Source: an uncultured delta proteobacterium (GTDB lineage: Bacteria > Myxococcota_A > UBA9160 > SZUA-336). Taken from it: 64,000 bases of DNA. Under the pieces are notes generated by a model that had not been told where the DNA came from, ran no database searches, and saw only the letters and a program-made list of their open reading frames with translations. Shown here one piece after another: positions 11,920 through 23,783 of this stretch. Where the stretch lies: positions 224,001 to 288,000 of the forward strand of contig CAVPHD010000004.1 of the NCBI GenBank assembly GCA_963704165.1. The letters run 5' to 3'. A program made the position numbers and the translations under genes. Numbering within the stretch: the first letter of the stretch is position 1; each line of letters starts with the position of its first letter.

Positions 11920-12907
11920 CGCGCGATCTTGATCCGTCGGTCGGTCCCCACGCAACCGGCGCCGAGTGCCGCAGCGCATCGATCCGCACGCGATGTGCGA
12001 TTCCGATCGGGCAGCTCTCCTCGCAGGCTCCGCAGCCGGTGCACGCGTCGAGGACGCTCCTCGGAATCGCGCGCGCGGCCGGATCGGAGCGCTGCGCGAG
12101 CAGCAGCCGCATCGGCGAGAGCGGATGCCCCTCGCGCGCGGGGGGCAGGCGACATCGCAGCGAGCGCAGCCGCTGCACGCGGCGAGCTGCAAACGCAGCC
12201 GCCACGGGAGTCGTCCACGCGCGTCGATCGCAGGAGGAACGGCGGGCTCGCGCGCATTCAGCAGGATCGAAAGCGGCGCGGCGAGAACGTGGCGAAGCCT
12301 CGTGAACGGGATCGCCGCGAGCAGCGCGGTGGCGGAGGCGATGTGAGCGACGTGGAGGACGCCGAAAGTCGCGGCACCCGCGAGTCCGGATCGCACGAAG
12401 AGCCGCGCGAGTGCGTGCCCGAGCCAGAGCTCGGCCTGCGCGTCGGCCGGCACGAGGGCGAGGCGTGCCCCTTCGACGAGAAATCCGCTCACGGGCACCG
12501 CCAGCAAGAGGACGAGCACGAGACCATCTCCGGGGAGGTCGACCTGCAACCGCTGCCAACGCCGCACGAAGCGGCGGTACAGGGCCATGGCCCCGCCGAG
12601 TGCCAAGGCCACTCCCGAGATCTCGCGCGTCAACGGAAGCCAGGCCTCGAGCGCGTGGAGAACGGCCGGCCGTGAAACGCCGGCGTGCGCCCAACGCTCG
12701 AGCGCCGTCGCCACGACGAGTCCCGCGGCGCCCCAGGACAGAAGCGAGTGCATCAGCGGTGCCCGCCAGCCTCCGCGGCGAATTCCGGACTGGACGATTG
12801 CGCGCTGCCAGAATTCGGTCGAGCGCGCCCCCCCGGCCCGGCGCGCTCAGCACCCGGGAGTCGATGATCCCGTCCCCGGTTCGAAAACCTGGTCCGTGTG
12901 CGAGCAC
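11912..12907 (-). CDS. Membrane Fe-S oxidoreductase (NarI-like TM region plus 2x[4Fe-4S]), frameshifted; start uncertain
   Basis: MHSLLSWG, SGFLVEGAR, IPFTRLRH, CSGCARCDVACP and CTGCGACEESCPIGIAH in different frames. Confidence 0.68.
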   Translation of the reverse strand: MLAHGPGFRTGDGIIDSRVLSAPGRGGALDRILAARNRPVRNSPRRLAGTADALASVLGRRGTRRGDGARALGARRRFTAGRSPRARGLASVDARDLGSGLGTRRGHGPVPPLRAALAAVAGRPPRRWSRARPLAGGARERISRRRGTPRPRAGRRAGRALARARTRAALRAIRTRGCRDFRRPPRRSHRLRHRAARGDPVHEASPRSRRAAFDPAECARARRSSCDRRAWTTPVAAAFAARRVQRLRSLRCRLPPAREGHPLSPMRLLLAQRSDPAARAIPRSVLDACTGCGACEESCPIGIAHRVRIDALRHSAPVAWGPTDGSRSRDE

Positions 12908-13086
12908 CGTTCAGCTTTCCGAACGCGGGATTTCCCCTTCGCGAGCGGCCGTCTTCCGGCCCCGCGTCCGGTGCGCCCGAGGGAGCGTTCGAATCGTCGA
13001 ACCGGGGCGCGGGTGGCTCGGATCAGCACTTCGAAAAACCTCAGCATCTTCAACCGGTTTCGTGTGTCGCGAAATCGAGATCCCAA

Positions 13087-13102
13087 CGGCAAGCAACTTG
13101 CA
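13087..13102 (+). promoter_or_regulatory. Sigma54 (-24/-12) promoter for the WD40 genes
   Basis: CGGCAAGCAACTTGCA = GG-N10-GC with TTGC, about 50 bp before the GGAGGA RBS and GTG. Confidence 0.65.
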
Positions 13103-13153
13103 TTCCGACCCGGCTTGCGGCCGTGGGGATCGCGATGGGGATGGGAGGAACGT

Positions 13154-14968
13154 GTGGAGATTCGTGCATCGGAGGACGCGGCGGCCGGACACTCCGCGCC
13201 AACGTGGATGGTGAGCTGGAGCCCCGACGGGACGACGCTCGCGTCGAGCTCCGAGGATGGCTCGGTGATTCTCTGGGACGCGCGAACGGGCGCTCCGCTC
13301 CGGCGGCTCTCTGGACACGACCGCGCCGTCTGGTCGGTCACGTGGCGCCCGGACGGGAGACGCCTGGCGACGGGCAGCGACGACGGGACCGCGGCGATCT
13401 GGGATCCGGCCGACGGCCGGCGCGTTCACGTGCTCACCGGTCATGCGGCCGGGGTCTGGGCGACCGGCTGGAGTGCCGACGGCCGACGGCTCGTCACGGG
13501 CGCGAGTGACTCGCGAATGTGTGTCTGGAACGGTGACAGCGGCGAGCTCGTCGCCGTGATCGAAGATCACCCGGCACTGCCGAAGGATGCGCGCTTCTCG
13601 CCCGACGGTCGCTGGCTCGCGACCTGTTGCGACGACCACCGGGTGCGCATCTTCGACGCGACGAACTTCACGCTGACGTGCGAGCTCGAAGGCCACACGC
13701 ATCACGTCAACACCGTCGATTGGACCCCGGATTCGCGATTCGTGGTGAGCGCTTCACACGACCGCACCGTGCGCGTCTGGGACGCGCTCGAACACCGACC
13801 GGTCCGCACGATCGAAGCCCACGAGGACGACATCGACGCCGCCAGCGTTTCTCCCGACGGGCGGCTGATTGCGAGCGCGGGGCACGATCGCGACCTGCGC
13901 GTGTGGGATCTTGCGACGGGCCGGCGCGTCGCCAGCCTCGCCGGGCACACGGACGAGATCGAGTGGGTTTCGTGGTCGCCCGACGGCCGACGTCTGGCCA
14001 CCACGTCGATCGACGCCCGGGTCCGGATCTACGACTTCGAACGCCGCGAGCTGCAGCACGTTCTGCCCGGACGCAATCGCTCGGTGTCGCGCGTGCGGGT
14101 CGCGCCCGGCGGTGAACGCATCGCCATCGCCGGAGCCGATCGATCGCTGCGCGTGCTCGACGGCTCGGGCGCGCCGATCGAAGCGCTCGACGACGTGCAC
14201 CCGAAGGCCGTCAAGGGAATGGAATGGTCGCCCGACGGTCAGCGCCTCGCGACCACGTCGCTCGACGGGGGTGTCGCCGTCTGGGAGTCGAGCCCGAGCG
14301 GCGTCGATTCCGTTCCGACGCGTTTCCAGCTCCCCGTCGGTGTCTATGCCGTGACCTGGTCACCCGACGGGCGGCGCCTGGCGGTAGGATTGGAGGACGG
14401 CGCGGTCGAGGTTCTCGACGCGCGAAGCGGGTCGAGGATCCGCAGCTTCCGCGATCACGACGAGCCGGTCTACTGCGTGGCCTGGTCGCCGGACGGCGAG
14501 TGGATCGCGTCGGCCTCGCGCGACGCCACGGTGGGAATGCACTCCGATCGCGACGACCGCCGCATCGAGTGTCGCGGACATACCGACCTTCTCTTCTCCA
14601 CGACCTGGTCGCCCGACGGCCGGCTGCTCGCGTCGAGCTCGCGCGACCGCACGACCCGAATCTGGGATCTCGACGGACGCTGCCTTCGGGTGCTCGACGG
14701 GCACGCGCTCAGCGTCTGGGACGCGCGCTTCTCGCTCGATGGAAAGCGCATCGCGTCGTGCTCCTTCGACGCCACGATCCGCGTCTACGACGTGGTCACG
14801 GGCGAGTCACTCGCTTGTCTGCACGGGCACACGCGCCAGGTCTCCAGCATCGACTGGGGCCCCGACGGGAGGCTGTGGAGCGGCAGCCGCGACGGGACCT
14901 GTCGCGTGTGGGACCTCGATCGCGGGACCCACGAGGTGCGAATTCCGAATCCGACGGAGATCTCATGA
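13154..14968 (+). CDS. WD40 repeat protein (about 14 repeats)
   Basis: Repeated GH...V..V.WSPDG..LA....D...R.WD; GGAGGA RBS before GTG 13154. Confidence 0.9.
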   Translation: MEIRASEDAAAGHSAPTWMVSWSPDGTTLASSSEDGSVILWDARTGAPLRRLSGHDRAVWSVTWRPDGRRLATGSDDGTAAIWDPADGRRVHVLTGHAAGVWATGWSADGRRLVTGASDSRMCVWNGDSGELVAVIEDHPALPKDARFSPDGRWLATCCDDHRVRIFDATNFTLTCELEGHTHHVNTVDWTPDSRFVVSASHDRTVRVWDALEHRPVRTIEAHEDDIDAASVSPDGRLIASAGHDRDLRVWDLATGRRVASLAGHTDEIEWVSWSPDGRRLATTSIDARVRIYDFERRELQHVLPGRNRSVSRVRVAPGGERIAIAGADRSLRVLDGSGAPIEALDDVHPKAVKGMEWSPDGQRLATTSLDGGVAVWESSPSGVDSVPTRFQLPVGVYAVTWSPDGRRLAVGLEDGAVEVLDARSGSRIRSFRDHDEPVYCVAWSPDGEWIASASRDATVGMHSDRDDRRIECRGHTDLLFSTTWSPDGRLLASSSRDRTTRIWDLDGRCLRVLDGHALSVWDARFSLDGKRIASCSFDATIRVYDVVTGESLACLHGHTRQVSSIDWGPDGRLWSGSRDGTCRVWDLDRGTHEVRIPNPTEIS

Positions 14969-16816
14969 GACCGGACGATCGACCGTCGGAAGGCGCTGCG
15001 CACGTCGCGCCGATCAGCTGCGCGACGGTATCGGCCGACGCGCGCTGGATCGCGTCCGGAAGTTACGACGCGACGATCCGAATCTGGGACGCGACGACGG
15101 GAAGCGTGGTCCGCGTGATCGAAGCGACGAGTCTCGTGAACGGGATCGACTTCTCGCCGGACGGGCGCTTCATCGCGAGCGGAGAGTGCGATCACGTGGC
15201 GTACCTCCGCGACGTCGAGAACGGGGAGCACGCTCCGCGACGCTGCGCGGTCACACCGATGACGTGAACACCGTCGCGTTCTCGCCCGACGGCAGGAGCC
15301 TGGCGACGGCGAGCTTCGACGACACCGCGCGGATCTGGGATTTGGAGAGCGGCGCTTGCCTGCACGTACTCGCGGGGCACGCCGACGACGTCAACGGCGT
15401 GCACTGGAGCCCCGACGGCAGCACTCGTCTCCACCGCCTCCGACGACGGCACCGCGCGCCTGTGGGAAGCCGAGACCGGCAAGCAGCTCGCGGTTCTCGA
15501 AGGCGCGCAGGACTGGTGCGATCAAGCCCCGTTCTCGCCCGACGGCCGCCACATTCTGTGCTCGTCGATGGACGGACGTGCGCGGATCTTCTCCGTGCCC
15601 GATGGCCGACTCGTGCGCGTGCTGGCGGACCACGGCGGCCCGGTGAAGGCAGCGGCGCTGGAGCCGCGACGGGCGTCGAATCTGCACGGCGAGCTACGAC
15701 CATCGCCTTCGCGAGTTCGTCGCACGAATTCGGGAGAGCTGCTCCGCGAGACCTCGAGCGCGTGGATGTGGACTCGGACCATCACCGAGATCGGCACCGG
15801 GCGCGGCTGGGTCACCGGCTCGTTCGAAGGTGCGCCGATCGTCTGGAGTCCCGACGGCGAAGCGCAGGGGCTCGTCGCGGCGCCGACGCACGGCGCGGGC
15901 GCCGCGGCGGTCTCGCCCGACGAACGCCTCGTCGCGGTTCCGTCCGACGACGGCTTCACCGGCGTGTATCGATTCGAAGACGGCGTGCGCGTGGCTTCGC
16001 TTCGCGGTCACGCCGGTCCGCCGATCTGCGCCGCCTTCTCGCCCGACGGTCGCCGCCTCGCCACCGGCATCCTGGGACGACTCCGTCGCGGTCCACGACA
16101 CCGCGAGCTTCGAGCTCGTGACGCGGATCCGGGGCCTGAACGACATCGTCTGTGCGCTCGCGTTCTCGGCAGACGGACGGGAGATCGTCACCGCGCATTA
16201 CTCCGGCGCCGTGGTTCGATGGGATGCCTCGAGCGGGCAGATCATGGGCCTGCTCACCTCACACCATGGATCGGCGAAGGCGCTCTGCCTCGGCCCGGAC
16301 GGCAGCTACCTGAGCGCCGGGCGAGACGGAGCCGTTCATCGCAGTCACGGGACCGGGGCTCCGACACGCTGGTCGCTCGCGCGAACGATCGTGAACGGCG
16401 TCGCGCTCGATCCCGCCGGACGACGATTCGTGACCGGCTCGCGCGACCACGGAGTCCGCGTTCACGATGTCGTGACGGGTGACGTGCTCGCCTCCTACGA
16501 CGGTCACGAATGCTCGGTCAAGACGGTGGCGTGGTCGTGCGATGGGACGCGCGTGGCCGCGGGCTACTACGACGGCTGCGTGCTGCTCTGGGAGCCGGAG
16601 AGCGGACGTGCGCGCGTGGTGTCACCCGTGAACGGCCATTCGGTGAGTCAGGTGACGTTCAAGAGCGACGGCGGGCTCGTGATCTCGTCCTGGAATCCGA
16701 CCGGCGAGATCGCGGTGACCGATGCCGACGGGATCGTGCGCGCGACCTTCGGAGGCACCGGGCATTCACTGGAGCGAAGCGTCGGAACGTGCCTGTCCGC
16801 GTCGGACGCGGCCTAG
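14965..16816 (+). CDS. Second WD40 repeat protein, several frameshifts
   Basis: ATGA overlap with the previous gene; WD repeats distributed over three frames. Confidence 0.78.
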
Positions 16817-21648: not shown

Positions 21649-21677
21649 GTGACTTCTACCCTACACCGGGGTATGTT
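21649..21677 (+). promoter_or_regulatory. Sigma70-type promoter of the riboswitch leader
   Basis: GTGACT-17-TATGTT about 10 bp before the aptamer. Confidence 0.5.
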
Positions 21678-21686
21678 ACGCGCGAA

Positions 21687-21815
21687 GCATTCAGAGTGGC
21701 TCGACCGATCGAGCCCGGCAACCTGGGGGGCCAACCCAAGGTGCCAATCCCACCGAGATCAGGTCTGGGCGGGAGATGCGGTCACGGCGGGGAGCCGTGG
21801 CAAGCGAAGTGGCCC
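21687..21815 (+). ncRNA. SAM-I/IV riboswitch
   Basis: P1 GCAT/ATGC, J1/2 AGAG, P2 GGCTCGA/TCGAGCC, P3 GGCAACC...GGTGCC, AA-P4, P5 hairpin GTCACGGC/GCCGTGGC, and L3 GGGCCA (21728-21733) complementary to TGGCCC (21810-21815), the PK-2 pseudoknot. Confidence 0.88.
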
Positions 21816-21872
21816 AAGCGACTCGTTCGAGTCGCCCGGAACTCGGATGCTTCCTCGATAGGAGAGGGCATC

Positions 21873-22508
21873 ATGGCATCCGACGACGAGGCGCTCGAAG
21901 AGTACGACTGGGAGACCGAGTCGGAAGACGACGACGATCTCGACGACGACGAGATCACCCTCGCCGCCTTGCTCCAGACGCTCGAAGGTGAGATCCAAAG
22001 CTTTCCGCTCGCCGACGGATCGACGGCCCTTCGCTTGGCGGAATGCGCGTACACCCTCGAGCACTGCCTCGGCTCCGACTTCTCGGAGTTGTTCAAGATG
22101 TTCTTCCTGCACCAGCACTACTCGAGCGACCTTGCGCGCGCGGGCTTCGCTTCCGAGACGCTGGCGTCGATCGGATTCGGCAACACGGCTCCAGGGATGT
22201 CCGGGTCGGTGGACCTCACCGTCCTCATTTTCCCTTTCGGCCTGCGCGTGTACCTCGGGCGGAACGACTGGGACGGGTGCCGACTCCTCGGTGGCGGCGT
22301 ACCGAACGAAGCTGAGGGTGCAGATCAGCTCGCCGCGCGCGGGCTCGAGGAAGTGGTGCGCGGCCGCGATCTCCCTCCACACATCCGCGACGCGCTGCTC
22401 GCCGTGCTGGAGTGTGCCGGCACCGCGGCCCTCGAGAACCTGGAGCACCGCGATGTGGTGTCACTCTGGCTGGAGGAGGTGCGCCCACTCCGCAGTCGCA
22501 GCGAGTGA
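21873..22508 (+). CDS. Hypothetical protein with an acidic N-terminus
   Basis: GGAGAGG RBS; 211 aa; no motif recognised. Confidence 0.65.
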   Translation: MASDDEALEEYDWETESEDDDDLDDDEITLAALLQTLEGEIQSFPLADGSTALRLAECAYTLEHCLGSDFSELFKMFFLHQHYSSDLARAGFASETLASIGFGNTAPGMSGSVDLTVLIFPFGLRVYLGRNDWDGCRLLGGGVPNEAEGADQLAARGLEEVVRGRDLPPHIRDALLAVLECAGTAALENLEHRDVVSLWLEEVRPLRSRSE

Positions 22509-22543: not shown

Positions 22544-22588
22544 TGCTGGCGCAGCTCGGGATCGAACCGGGGAGCGGCGGATATTCAG
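22544..22588 (-). repeat. Degenerate direct repeat of the 3' half of tRNA-Phe (att-like)
   Basis: 39/45 nt identical to 23708-23752. Confidence 0.85.
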
Positions 22589-22657: not shown

Positions 22658-23410
22658 CTACTCTCGGCCCGGCTCGCGCCCCAGCACCATCAACGGATCG
22701 GCATCACGTACGGCGATCCACCGCTCGAGGAATTCGAGTCTGGGAACGAGCCGTGCTCCCAAGGCGATTTTGTAGTCCATCCACGGGTATCCCATGTTCC
22801 AGAACACATAGCCCAGGTTCCGCAGCCTCTCGGCCAACAAGACCATCTGCAGGGTTCCAAAGTGCTTCCAGCGCTCCTCACCCCGAACACAGAATCCCGA
22901 GAGGCTCGTGTAGCTACGCCCAATGGTGTAGCCCAACTCGCCCGCAATCAGCCGTCCGGCCTTGTTCGACCACAGCTCGATCCCGTGAATCGCGAAGTGC
23001 GGATAGGCGCTGCGCTCGAGTTCCCGAACGAGTTCGCAGTACGGCGGCAGCAGCCAGGTTCGTGGGCGGTGATAGTCGACTAGACGCTCCAGCACCTGTG
23101 AGCAATCGGGGGCAACTCGAAGCTCGACTTGCTCCTCAGCGAGCCGCCCCGATGCGATGAGCCAACGCAGGTTTCTCGACAGGTGGAGGTTTCGCCAATC
23201 GAGAACCGCAAAGGTCTTCTCGAGTTCAGGAAGCAGTACGACGCCCAGGTCTGCTTCGTCGCTCGCGATCGAGATGAATCCCGCTCGCGCAAGCGAGACG
23301 TAGAGTCGCGGATCCCAGGAGTCAGACCAGAAGTGCGTCCGAGGCGCGCGGGGATAGATGCGGGAGTGGAGGAGATCCTCCCGAATGTGGGCTAGTGCAA
23401 TCCGCTCCAT
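22658..23410 (-). CDS. Leucyl/phenylalanyl-tRNA-protein transferase-like (Aat/GNAT) protein
   Basis: LHLSRNLR, TWL, HGIELW...LIAGELGYTIG..YTSLSGF, GTLQMV, FWNMG..MDYKIALGA. Confidence 0.72.
   Translation of the reverse strand: MERIALAHIREDLLHSRIYPRAPRTHFWSDSWDPRLYVSLARAGFISIASDEADLGVVLLPELEKTFAVLDWRNLHLSRNLRWLIASGRLAEEQVELRVAPDCSQVLERLVDYHRPRTWLLPPYCELVRELERSAYPHFAIHGIELWSNKAGRLIAGELGYTIGRSYTSLSGFCVRGEERWKHFGTLQMVLLAERLRNLGYVFWNMGYPWMDYKIALGARLVPRLEFLERWIAVRDADPLMVLGREPGRE

Positions 23411-23707: not shown

Positions 23708-23783
<76 letters not shown>

Follow-up and report, generated by a model that had tools for sequence, protein, structure and literature searches.

Riboswitches hint at the function of the genes they control. 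What, then, does a SAM-I/IV riboswitch do ahead of a gene for a 211-aa acidic protein in an uncultured delta proteobacterium, and is that gene under its control? The locus lies in a stretch of 64,000 nucleotides, here called the window, for which an initial annotation had proposed a complete SAM-I/IV riboswitch preceding either a new SAM-related protein, or else a switch orphaned or recruited beside a tRNA integration hotspot. Searches of the open literature, a scope outside which key papers lie, listed no description of a SAM-I/IV switch ahead of genes of this kind, nor one of the capture of the 5' strand of P1 that is predicted here. The features of the locus are collected in Table 1.

Table 1. 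Features of the switch, the orphan gene and its surroundings (window positions)
Feature	Position	Strand	Basis or remark
Promoter-like site	21649-21677 (-35 21649-54, 17-nt spacer, -10 21672-77)	+	sequence, inferred
Switching strand (P1 5' strand and J1/2)	21684-21696	+	pairs in P1 or with 21842-21853
P1	21687-91/21775-79	+	fold and sequence
P2	21696-21716	+	no kink-turn, undivided; fold and sequence
P3	21717-27/21735-45	+	fold and sequence
PK-2, 6 bp	L3 21728-33 (5' strand) with 21810-15 (3' strand)	+	complementarity, covariation
P4	21748-74	+	fold and sequence
P5, 8 bp, 3' of P1	21781-21801	+	fold and sequence
Spacer hairpin, 7 bp	21818-21835	+	between aptamer and expression platform; fold
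Dual-use arm	21842-21853	+	pairs with P1 5' strand (predicted ON) or RBS/start region (predicted OFF)
Shine-Dalgarno GGAGAGG	21861-21867	+	ATG 5 nt further 3'; sequence
P0001, 211-aa acidic orphan	21873-22508	+	acidic tail of 27 residues; core predicted as alpha/beta; transmembrane helices absent
Att-like scar, degenerate tRNA-Phe 3'-half duplicate	22544-22588 (approx.)	-	35 nt past orphan stop
aat, Leu/Phe-tRNA-protein transferase (PF03588)	22658-23410	-	islet between scar and tRNA; not under switch
tRNA-Phe(GAA)	23708-23783	-	carries integrase elements in two same-genus genomes

Class membership and architecture of the aptamer

A scan of the whole window with Rfam returned two RNAs, tRNA-Phe and a full-length SAM-I/IV aptamer. 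The latter matched RF01725 over the full model (1-99) at 21682-21817 of the plus strand, with 46.3 bits against a gathering score of 41.1 and an E value of 2.3e-4; this is the covariance-model search that the initial annotation had proposed. The aptamer fold has a z-score of -3.3, and 0 of 200 shuffles were equally stable. Against the SAM-I model (RF00162) the RNA reached 29.6 bits, below the cut-off of 44.4, and its undivided P2 lacks a kink-turn. The SAM-IV model (RF00634) gave no match, and P4 is present, unlike in SAM-IV. All elements claimed at the outset, including P5 and the pseudoknot between L3 and the 3' side, were recovered as P1 to P5 and PK-2. The inner P1 pair is U·G. At positions that we take to correspond through SAM-I numbering, the SAM-contact equivalents are complete (6/6): U21690 (U7), G21694 (G11), A21720 (A45), U21742 (U57), G21743 (G58), and U21777 (U88).

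The contact list is that of the supplement of PMC2864571, the description of the class by Weinberg et al. 2010, as far as excerpts of that paper go. Excerpts of PMC6890682 give the SAM-I/IV architecture as an undivided P2, a P4 and no PK-1. With RF01725 as portrayed in these two sources the window aptamer shares its score, the SAM core, the undivided P2, P4, P5 and PK-2, and the lack of PK-1. By every feature tested it is a member of the SAM-I/IV class, and an RNA with this sequence would very probably bind SAM. It departs from a typical RF01725 representative in the singleton gene that it would control, and in that the core Met genes checked in this genome are without a switch.

Leader layout and predicted switching

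The leader had been credited with its own promoter. A promoter scanner with a threshold of 9/12 found 0 sites, and the candidate GTGACT-17-TATGTT agrees with 8 of 12 consensus positions; promoter-like boxes occupy the same position in six homologous leaders, which speaks for the claim where the scanner does not. Transcription is predicted from the sequence to start near 21684. The hairpin described over the RBS (GATGC...GCATC) is real, with the correction that its 5' arm begins one base earlier than stated (21846 instead of 21847); the partner of this arm is 21866-21872.

By computation, and beyond what the initial annotation described, the 5' leader and its expression platform form two mutually exclusive folds. 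Three pairings are open to the dual-use arm: with the 5' strand of P1 plus J1/2 (12 bp, -17.3 kcal/mol), with the RBS side (-10.8 kcal/mol), or with codons 1-4 of the ORF (9 bp, -14.9 kcal/mol). The last is equalled by 11 of 1074 gene starts. In pairing with the 5' strand, the real platform was matched by 0 of 5000 random genome 57-mers. Opening the Shine-Dalgarno sequence costs 6.2-8.7 kcal/mol with P1 enforced versus 3.1-4.3 kcal/mol with the alternative helix, and this sequence is partly paired even in the predicted ON fold. Computed for four transcript 3' ends, the two states lie -6.0 to +3.6 kcal/mol apart in ensemble energy, the favoured state changing with transcript length in a folding model that includes neither pseudoknots nor ligand, both of which would favour P1.

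With SAM bound, P1 and PK-2 would keep the aptamer locked, so that the arm stays free to cover the Shine-Dalgarno sequence and the start codon and to block translation. Without SAM, the 12-bp helix between the arm and the 5' strand of P1 plus J1/2 would form and dismantle the pocket, the RBS would be loosened, and the orphan gene would be translated. P5 and PK-2 occupy the 3' side, and the platform seems to capture the 5' strand of P1 instead. The prediction is an ON state when SAM is low and an OFF state when it is high. The switch probably controls the 211-aa ORF, and the RNA most likely works, and on this gene.

Two described systems are close to this scheme. SAM-I_Xcc of Xanthomonas campestris is, in excerpts of PMC7270179, a translational OFF switch whose bound state hides the Shine-Dalgarno sequence and AUG, and whose Shine-Dalgarno sequence is partly paired without ligand, as in the predicted ON fold of the window. 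According to the same excerpts it differs in belonging to the SAM-I class, in having a kink-turn and no extra pseudoknot, and in controlling a met operon; it additionally senses uncharged initiator tRNA. In the model of P1-regulated riboswitches outlined in part of PMC11477058, P1 excludes a downstream regulatory helix, as in the window. There, switching usually involves the 3' strand of P1, whereas in the window the predicted target of the platform is the 5' strand together with J1/2.

Conservation in related leaders

A metagenome scan of the leader sub-lineage gave 120 loci and, from these, 103 leaders. A start codon followed within 130 nt in 76 of the leaders, among which there were 68 distinct ones. 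The duplex between the 5' strand and the leader's own platform averaged -18.4, versus -9.7 with shuffled platforms, and was the better one in 67 of the 68 leaders; in 53 of them it was also stronger than the average over foreign platforms. The window's own duplex (-15.1, versus -10.3 with foreign platforms) ranks 3 of 68. One compensatory C-G pair in its PK-2 is unique among the 68 leaders, 51 of which have A-U and 7 G-C at this place.

On an alignment of seven class leaders, pairing reaches 98.9% over P1, P3, PK-2, and the RBS hairpin, and 6 of 27 pairs are changed on both sides; 0 of 500 shuffles matched this, a count that is not a probability, the structure having been drawn from the window and the rows being kin. 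The ON helix is 77% paired on the same alignment, a value reached by 7 of 500 shuffles, and its number of double-sided changes was reached by 149 of 500. A one-base register shift in the window explains part of this weaker score. Both PK-2 and the RBS hairpin show compensatory changes particular to the window. Among the 25 non-Met and 48 Met leaders of the genome set, 14 and 15, respectively, have complementarity to the 5' strand at p <= 0.02, compared with 0 and 4 for the 3' strand at the same level.

The window has the longest branch in a tree of 104 leaders (0.77 versus a median of 0.025). It stands nearest to seven metK leaders, on a long branch and with unstarred support (84/98), and these are 78% identical to it over 125 columns. 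From promoter to start codon, the window leader can be aligned with leaders of other genes.

Genes behind related switches

Rfam scans covered 221 of the 225 class genomes and gave 14 matches, 8 of them above the cut-off. The first genes are HHLW, our working label for a small DUF6538-like protein (6 matches), a MoxR ATPase (4), a 97-aa ORF followed by MoxR (1), unknowns (2), and the window orphan (1). Four class operons run on via DUF2201 to a MetK paralogue. SAM-I/IV-led operons with MoxR (3/4), a DUF2201-type gene and a divergent MetK paralogue were recorded at L177:87-4471, L179:110-4899, L184:5218-10093, and L178:8097-12845. A pattern search matched 17 of the 225 class genomes, namely 13 HHLW cassettes, the window locus, and three chance matches in coding regions. 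All 13 genomes with an HHLW gene (L312-L324) carry the same leader sub-lineage, of which the Rfam scans reported 6, so database counts of SAM-I/IV are low.

A GTDB scan listed 121 of about 520 loci, 80 of them with flanks. First genes in these 80 were grouped as Met/SAM/sulfur (48), other (25), or ungrouped (7), after 36 proteins had been checked against Pfam and the rest assigned by likeness. The initial statement that such switches normally precede Met genes holds only in part, for 48 of these 80 loci, and not in the class, where 0 of 14 matches have a core Met gene directly behind the switch. A picked ORF was available for 106 of the 120 metagenome loci (74 HHLW, 10 MetK-family, 6 MoxR, 5 TPR, and 11 other, with a few evident mis-picks). 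By these counts, a SAM-I/IV switch ahead of accessory genes is a common arrangement.

The leaders of HHLW and of the MoxR-DUF2201-MetK-paralogue operons belong to the same sub-lineage as the window leader, share its platform logic, and are alignable with it from promoter to start codon. The window differs from these cassettes in its first gene, its single-gene unit, and its lack of a MetK paralogue and of the TATGACAC box. No HHLW, MoxR, DUF2201, or MetK-paralogue gene was found at the locus behind its switch, and a search of the genome found no HHLW. Of the HHLW leaders, 56 of 67 from the metagenomes and all 10 scored in the class have the TATGACAC box 8-12 nt 5' of the -35 (L187-L306, L312-L324); leaders of other genes have it in 4 of 28 cases, some of which are likely mis-picked HHLW loci. 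The box may serve as an operator for HHLW, in which case HHLW would regulate itself under the gate of a riboswitch. A search for a wider TATGACAC regulon returned the HHLW promoter in 10 of the 13 HHLW genomes and 8 other matches, with no regulon evident. Elsewhere, two SAM-I/IV switches lie 5 kb apart on one contig with orphan genes behind them (L046 and L047), and further switch-led orphan families (L223/L236; L027/L037/L085; L025/L065) consist of an acidic protein of 233 aa and two families rich in Cys.

The orphan protein

To judge from its composition, the ORF codes like a genuine gene. It has a GC3 of 0.83, fits the codon usage of the genome better than the other five frames, and shows a codon adaptation of 0.62, compared with 0.69-0.76 in core genes and 0.46-0.63 in its neighbours. 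The protein has a pI of 4.2, with 43 D+E versus 14 K+R; acidity is concentrated in the tail, 17 of the first 27 residues being acidic. None of six simple motifs sought, including GxGxG, the radical-SAM motif, and GHPD, is present, which bears out the description of an acidic protein lacking a recognisable Met/SAM motif. The highest 19-residue hydropathy is 1.28.

Pfam and NCBIfam profiles assigned the ORF to 0 families, and PHROGs and PADLOC gave no match. A word-index search at near, longer, and shorter lengths left it alone in its own cluster among 5.8 billion proteins. No credible homologue was found by phmmer in 1.84 billion representatives, one other match (E 3e-4) being discarded as a short alignment to ankyrin-like repeats, or in the ESM Atlas, PDB sequences, plasmids, phages, and viral contigs. 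Three matches in the 225 class genomes (E 0.003-0.007) were judged to be chance, and the one inspected lies in an unrelated long ORF. A set of 360 loci gave no credible homologue, and forced alignment with three other switch-led orphans gave nothing convincing. The initial annotation had named an ORF without homologues as evidence against its reading, and a singleton is what every search returned. Two single-sequence models (pLDDT 55 and 53) both show helices, a four-strand sheet, and three C-terminal helices; a fold search with these low-confidence models reached best Z values of 5.3 and 6.4 against helical fragments only, which does not imply a new fold.

Because of the switch, the genes under sister leaders, and the lack of catalytic motifs and membrane helices, the orphan may serve a low-SAM response as a soluble accessory factor, acting through binding to another protein, and not as an enzyme or transporter of the Met pathway. 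We give this joint reading about an even chance. That the protein has a real role in the low-SAM response at all appears similarly balanced.

Genomic context

The orphan forms a unit of its own; beyond this single gene lie the att-like scar and the convergent aat. The core of the scar is identical to tRNA-Phe at 26 of 27 positions, and 0 of 100 shuffles gave two matches. A tyrosine integrase adjoins this tRNA-Phe in 2 of 11 relatives' regions (G007, G008). The suggested tRNA integration hotspot is upheld by the duplicated tRNA-Phe 3' end and by these integrases at the same tRNA in two same-genus genomes. The integrase elements span L147:690-4900 and L148:1323-3238, and that of G007 also has a Toprim and AAA_25 primase-helicase gene. 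No second scar was found within the window, so the switch and ORF lie beside the islet, just outside the scar, and are not shown to lie inside one.

The aat gene occurs in 0 of 11 same-genus genomes. A tight unit of switch and aat was considered and dropped, a switch lying within 1.5 kb in only 2 of 20 aat loci, the window included. A 56%-identical aat adjoins a SAM-I/IV switch in another genome (L370, G156:C183). The upstream acyltransferase has its closest copy in G007 (78% identity), among different neighbours. Elsewhere in the window, at 12587-16816, a long WD40-like repeat region has several overlapping frames after a 793-aa ORF, with possible frameshifts or assembly errors.

The window switch is the only SAM-clan switch found in the genome, which is 84% complete. 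A single metK, metH, metF, and a MetB/MetY-family gene are located elsewhere, and Rfam matched nothing at E <= 1 in the 3-kb regions that surround these genes. Neither Rfam nor the pattern found the switch in 31 same-family genomes, and its distribution is patchy. A standard met gene at this place in relatives, which would have spoken against the initial reading, was not seen.

Alternative explanations

We favour, at somewhat better than an even chance, an intact SAM-I/IV leader with SAM-repressed translation, likely a horizontally acquired, portable leader gating accessory genes. Portability is suggested because the first genes behind sister leaders are unrelated and the switch was not found in the 31 same-family genomes. 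The recruitment considered at the outset gains support from this absence and from the alignment with leaders of other genes, and an orphaned, dead switch is made unlikely by the window's own compensatory changes. These changes cannot be dated relative to the joining of leader and ORF, and with a singleton ORF no conserved linkage of switch and gene can be demonstrated. An RNA that has ceased to respond to SAM, or senses another ligand, might explain a score merely 5 bits above the cut-off, the longest branch among 104 leaders, and the U·G inner P1 pair, but is very improbable with canonical contacts at 6 of 6 positions and changes that are compensatory, not disruptive. A working leader may also have come from a metK or MoxR/MetK-paralogue operon and been fused to an unrelated gene by rearrangement at the tRNA hotspot, which would make repression by SAM accidental. 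The ORF being a singleton, the scar 35 nt downstream that could have removed later genes, the metK genes behind the nearest leaders (78% over 125 columns), and the four class operons continuing to a MetK paralogue are all in keeping with such a fusion. Nevertheless, the leader has diverged far (0.77 versus 0.025) and kept all contacts and pairings, codons 1-4 pair with the arm as in only 11 of 1074 starts, and remnants of a sister cassette, sought in the genome, were not found; we regard the fusion as rather unlikely.

A different role would follow if the switch sensed sudden SAM loss, for example through a phage SAM lyase, and the acidic protein served in defence or as a DNA mimic relieving methylation-dependent restriction. 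The excess of acidic residues (43 D+E versus 14 K+R), the integration hotspot, and the toxin-antitoxin, HNH, or methylase genes near some class loci fit this idea, and there is a precedent in phage T3 SAMase, which defeats type I RM and BREX according to 10.1101/2023.02.27.530186. Against it stand the lack of any PADLOC or PHROG match, N6-methylase families not found in the 84% complete genome, acidity mostly confined to the tail, and 0 matches of the full switch pattern in viral contigs; it seems quite improbable. A looser pattern gave 10 matches in viral contigs, judged by eye to be chance. Marginally less improbable, and still unlikely, is a broader proposal in which the SAM-I/IV leaders of the class would be portable low-SAM alarm cassettes, the orphan a new effector released when SAM is drained, and capture of the P1 5' strand the mechanism.

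Significance

The portable, SAM-repressed leader that we favour adds to the class a new orphan target, a class-wide picture in which the matches obtained included no core Met gene directly behind the switch, and a testable 5'-strand mechanism. The value of the single locus is limited because its protein has no relatives, and the conserved sister cassettes are better targets than the window orphan. The leader itself permits a direct test of how SAM-I/IV switches act, through the predicted capture of the P1 5' strand. A SAM switch on non-methionine genes marks an unexplored low-SAM response in uncultured bacteria, of which the orphan is one candidate member.
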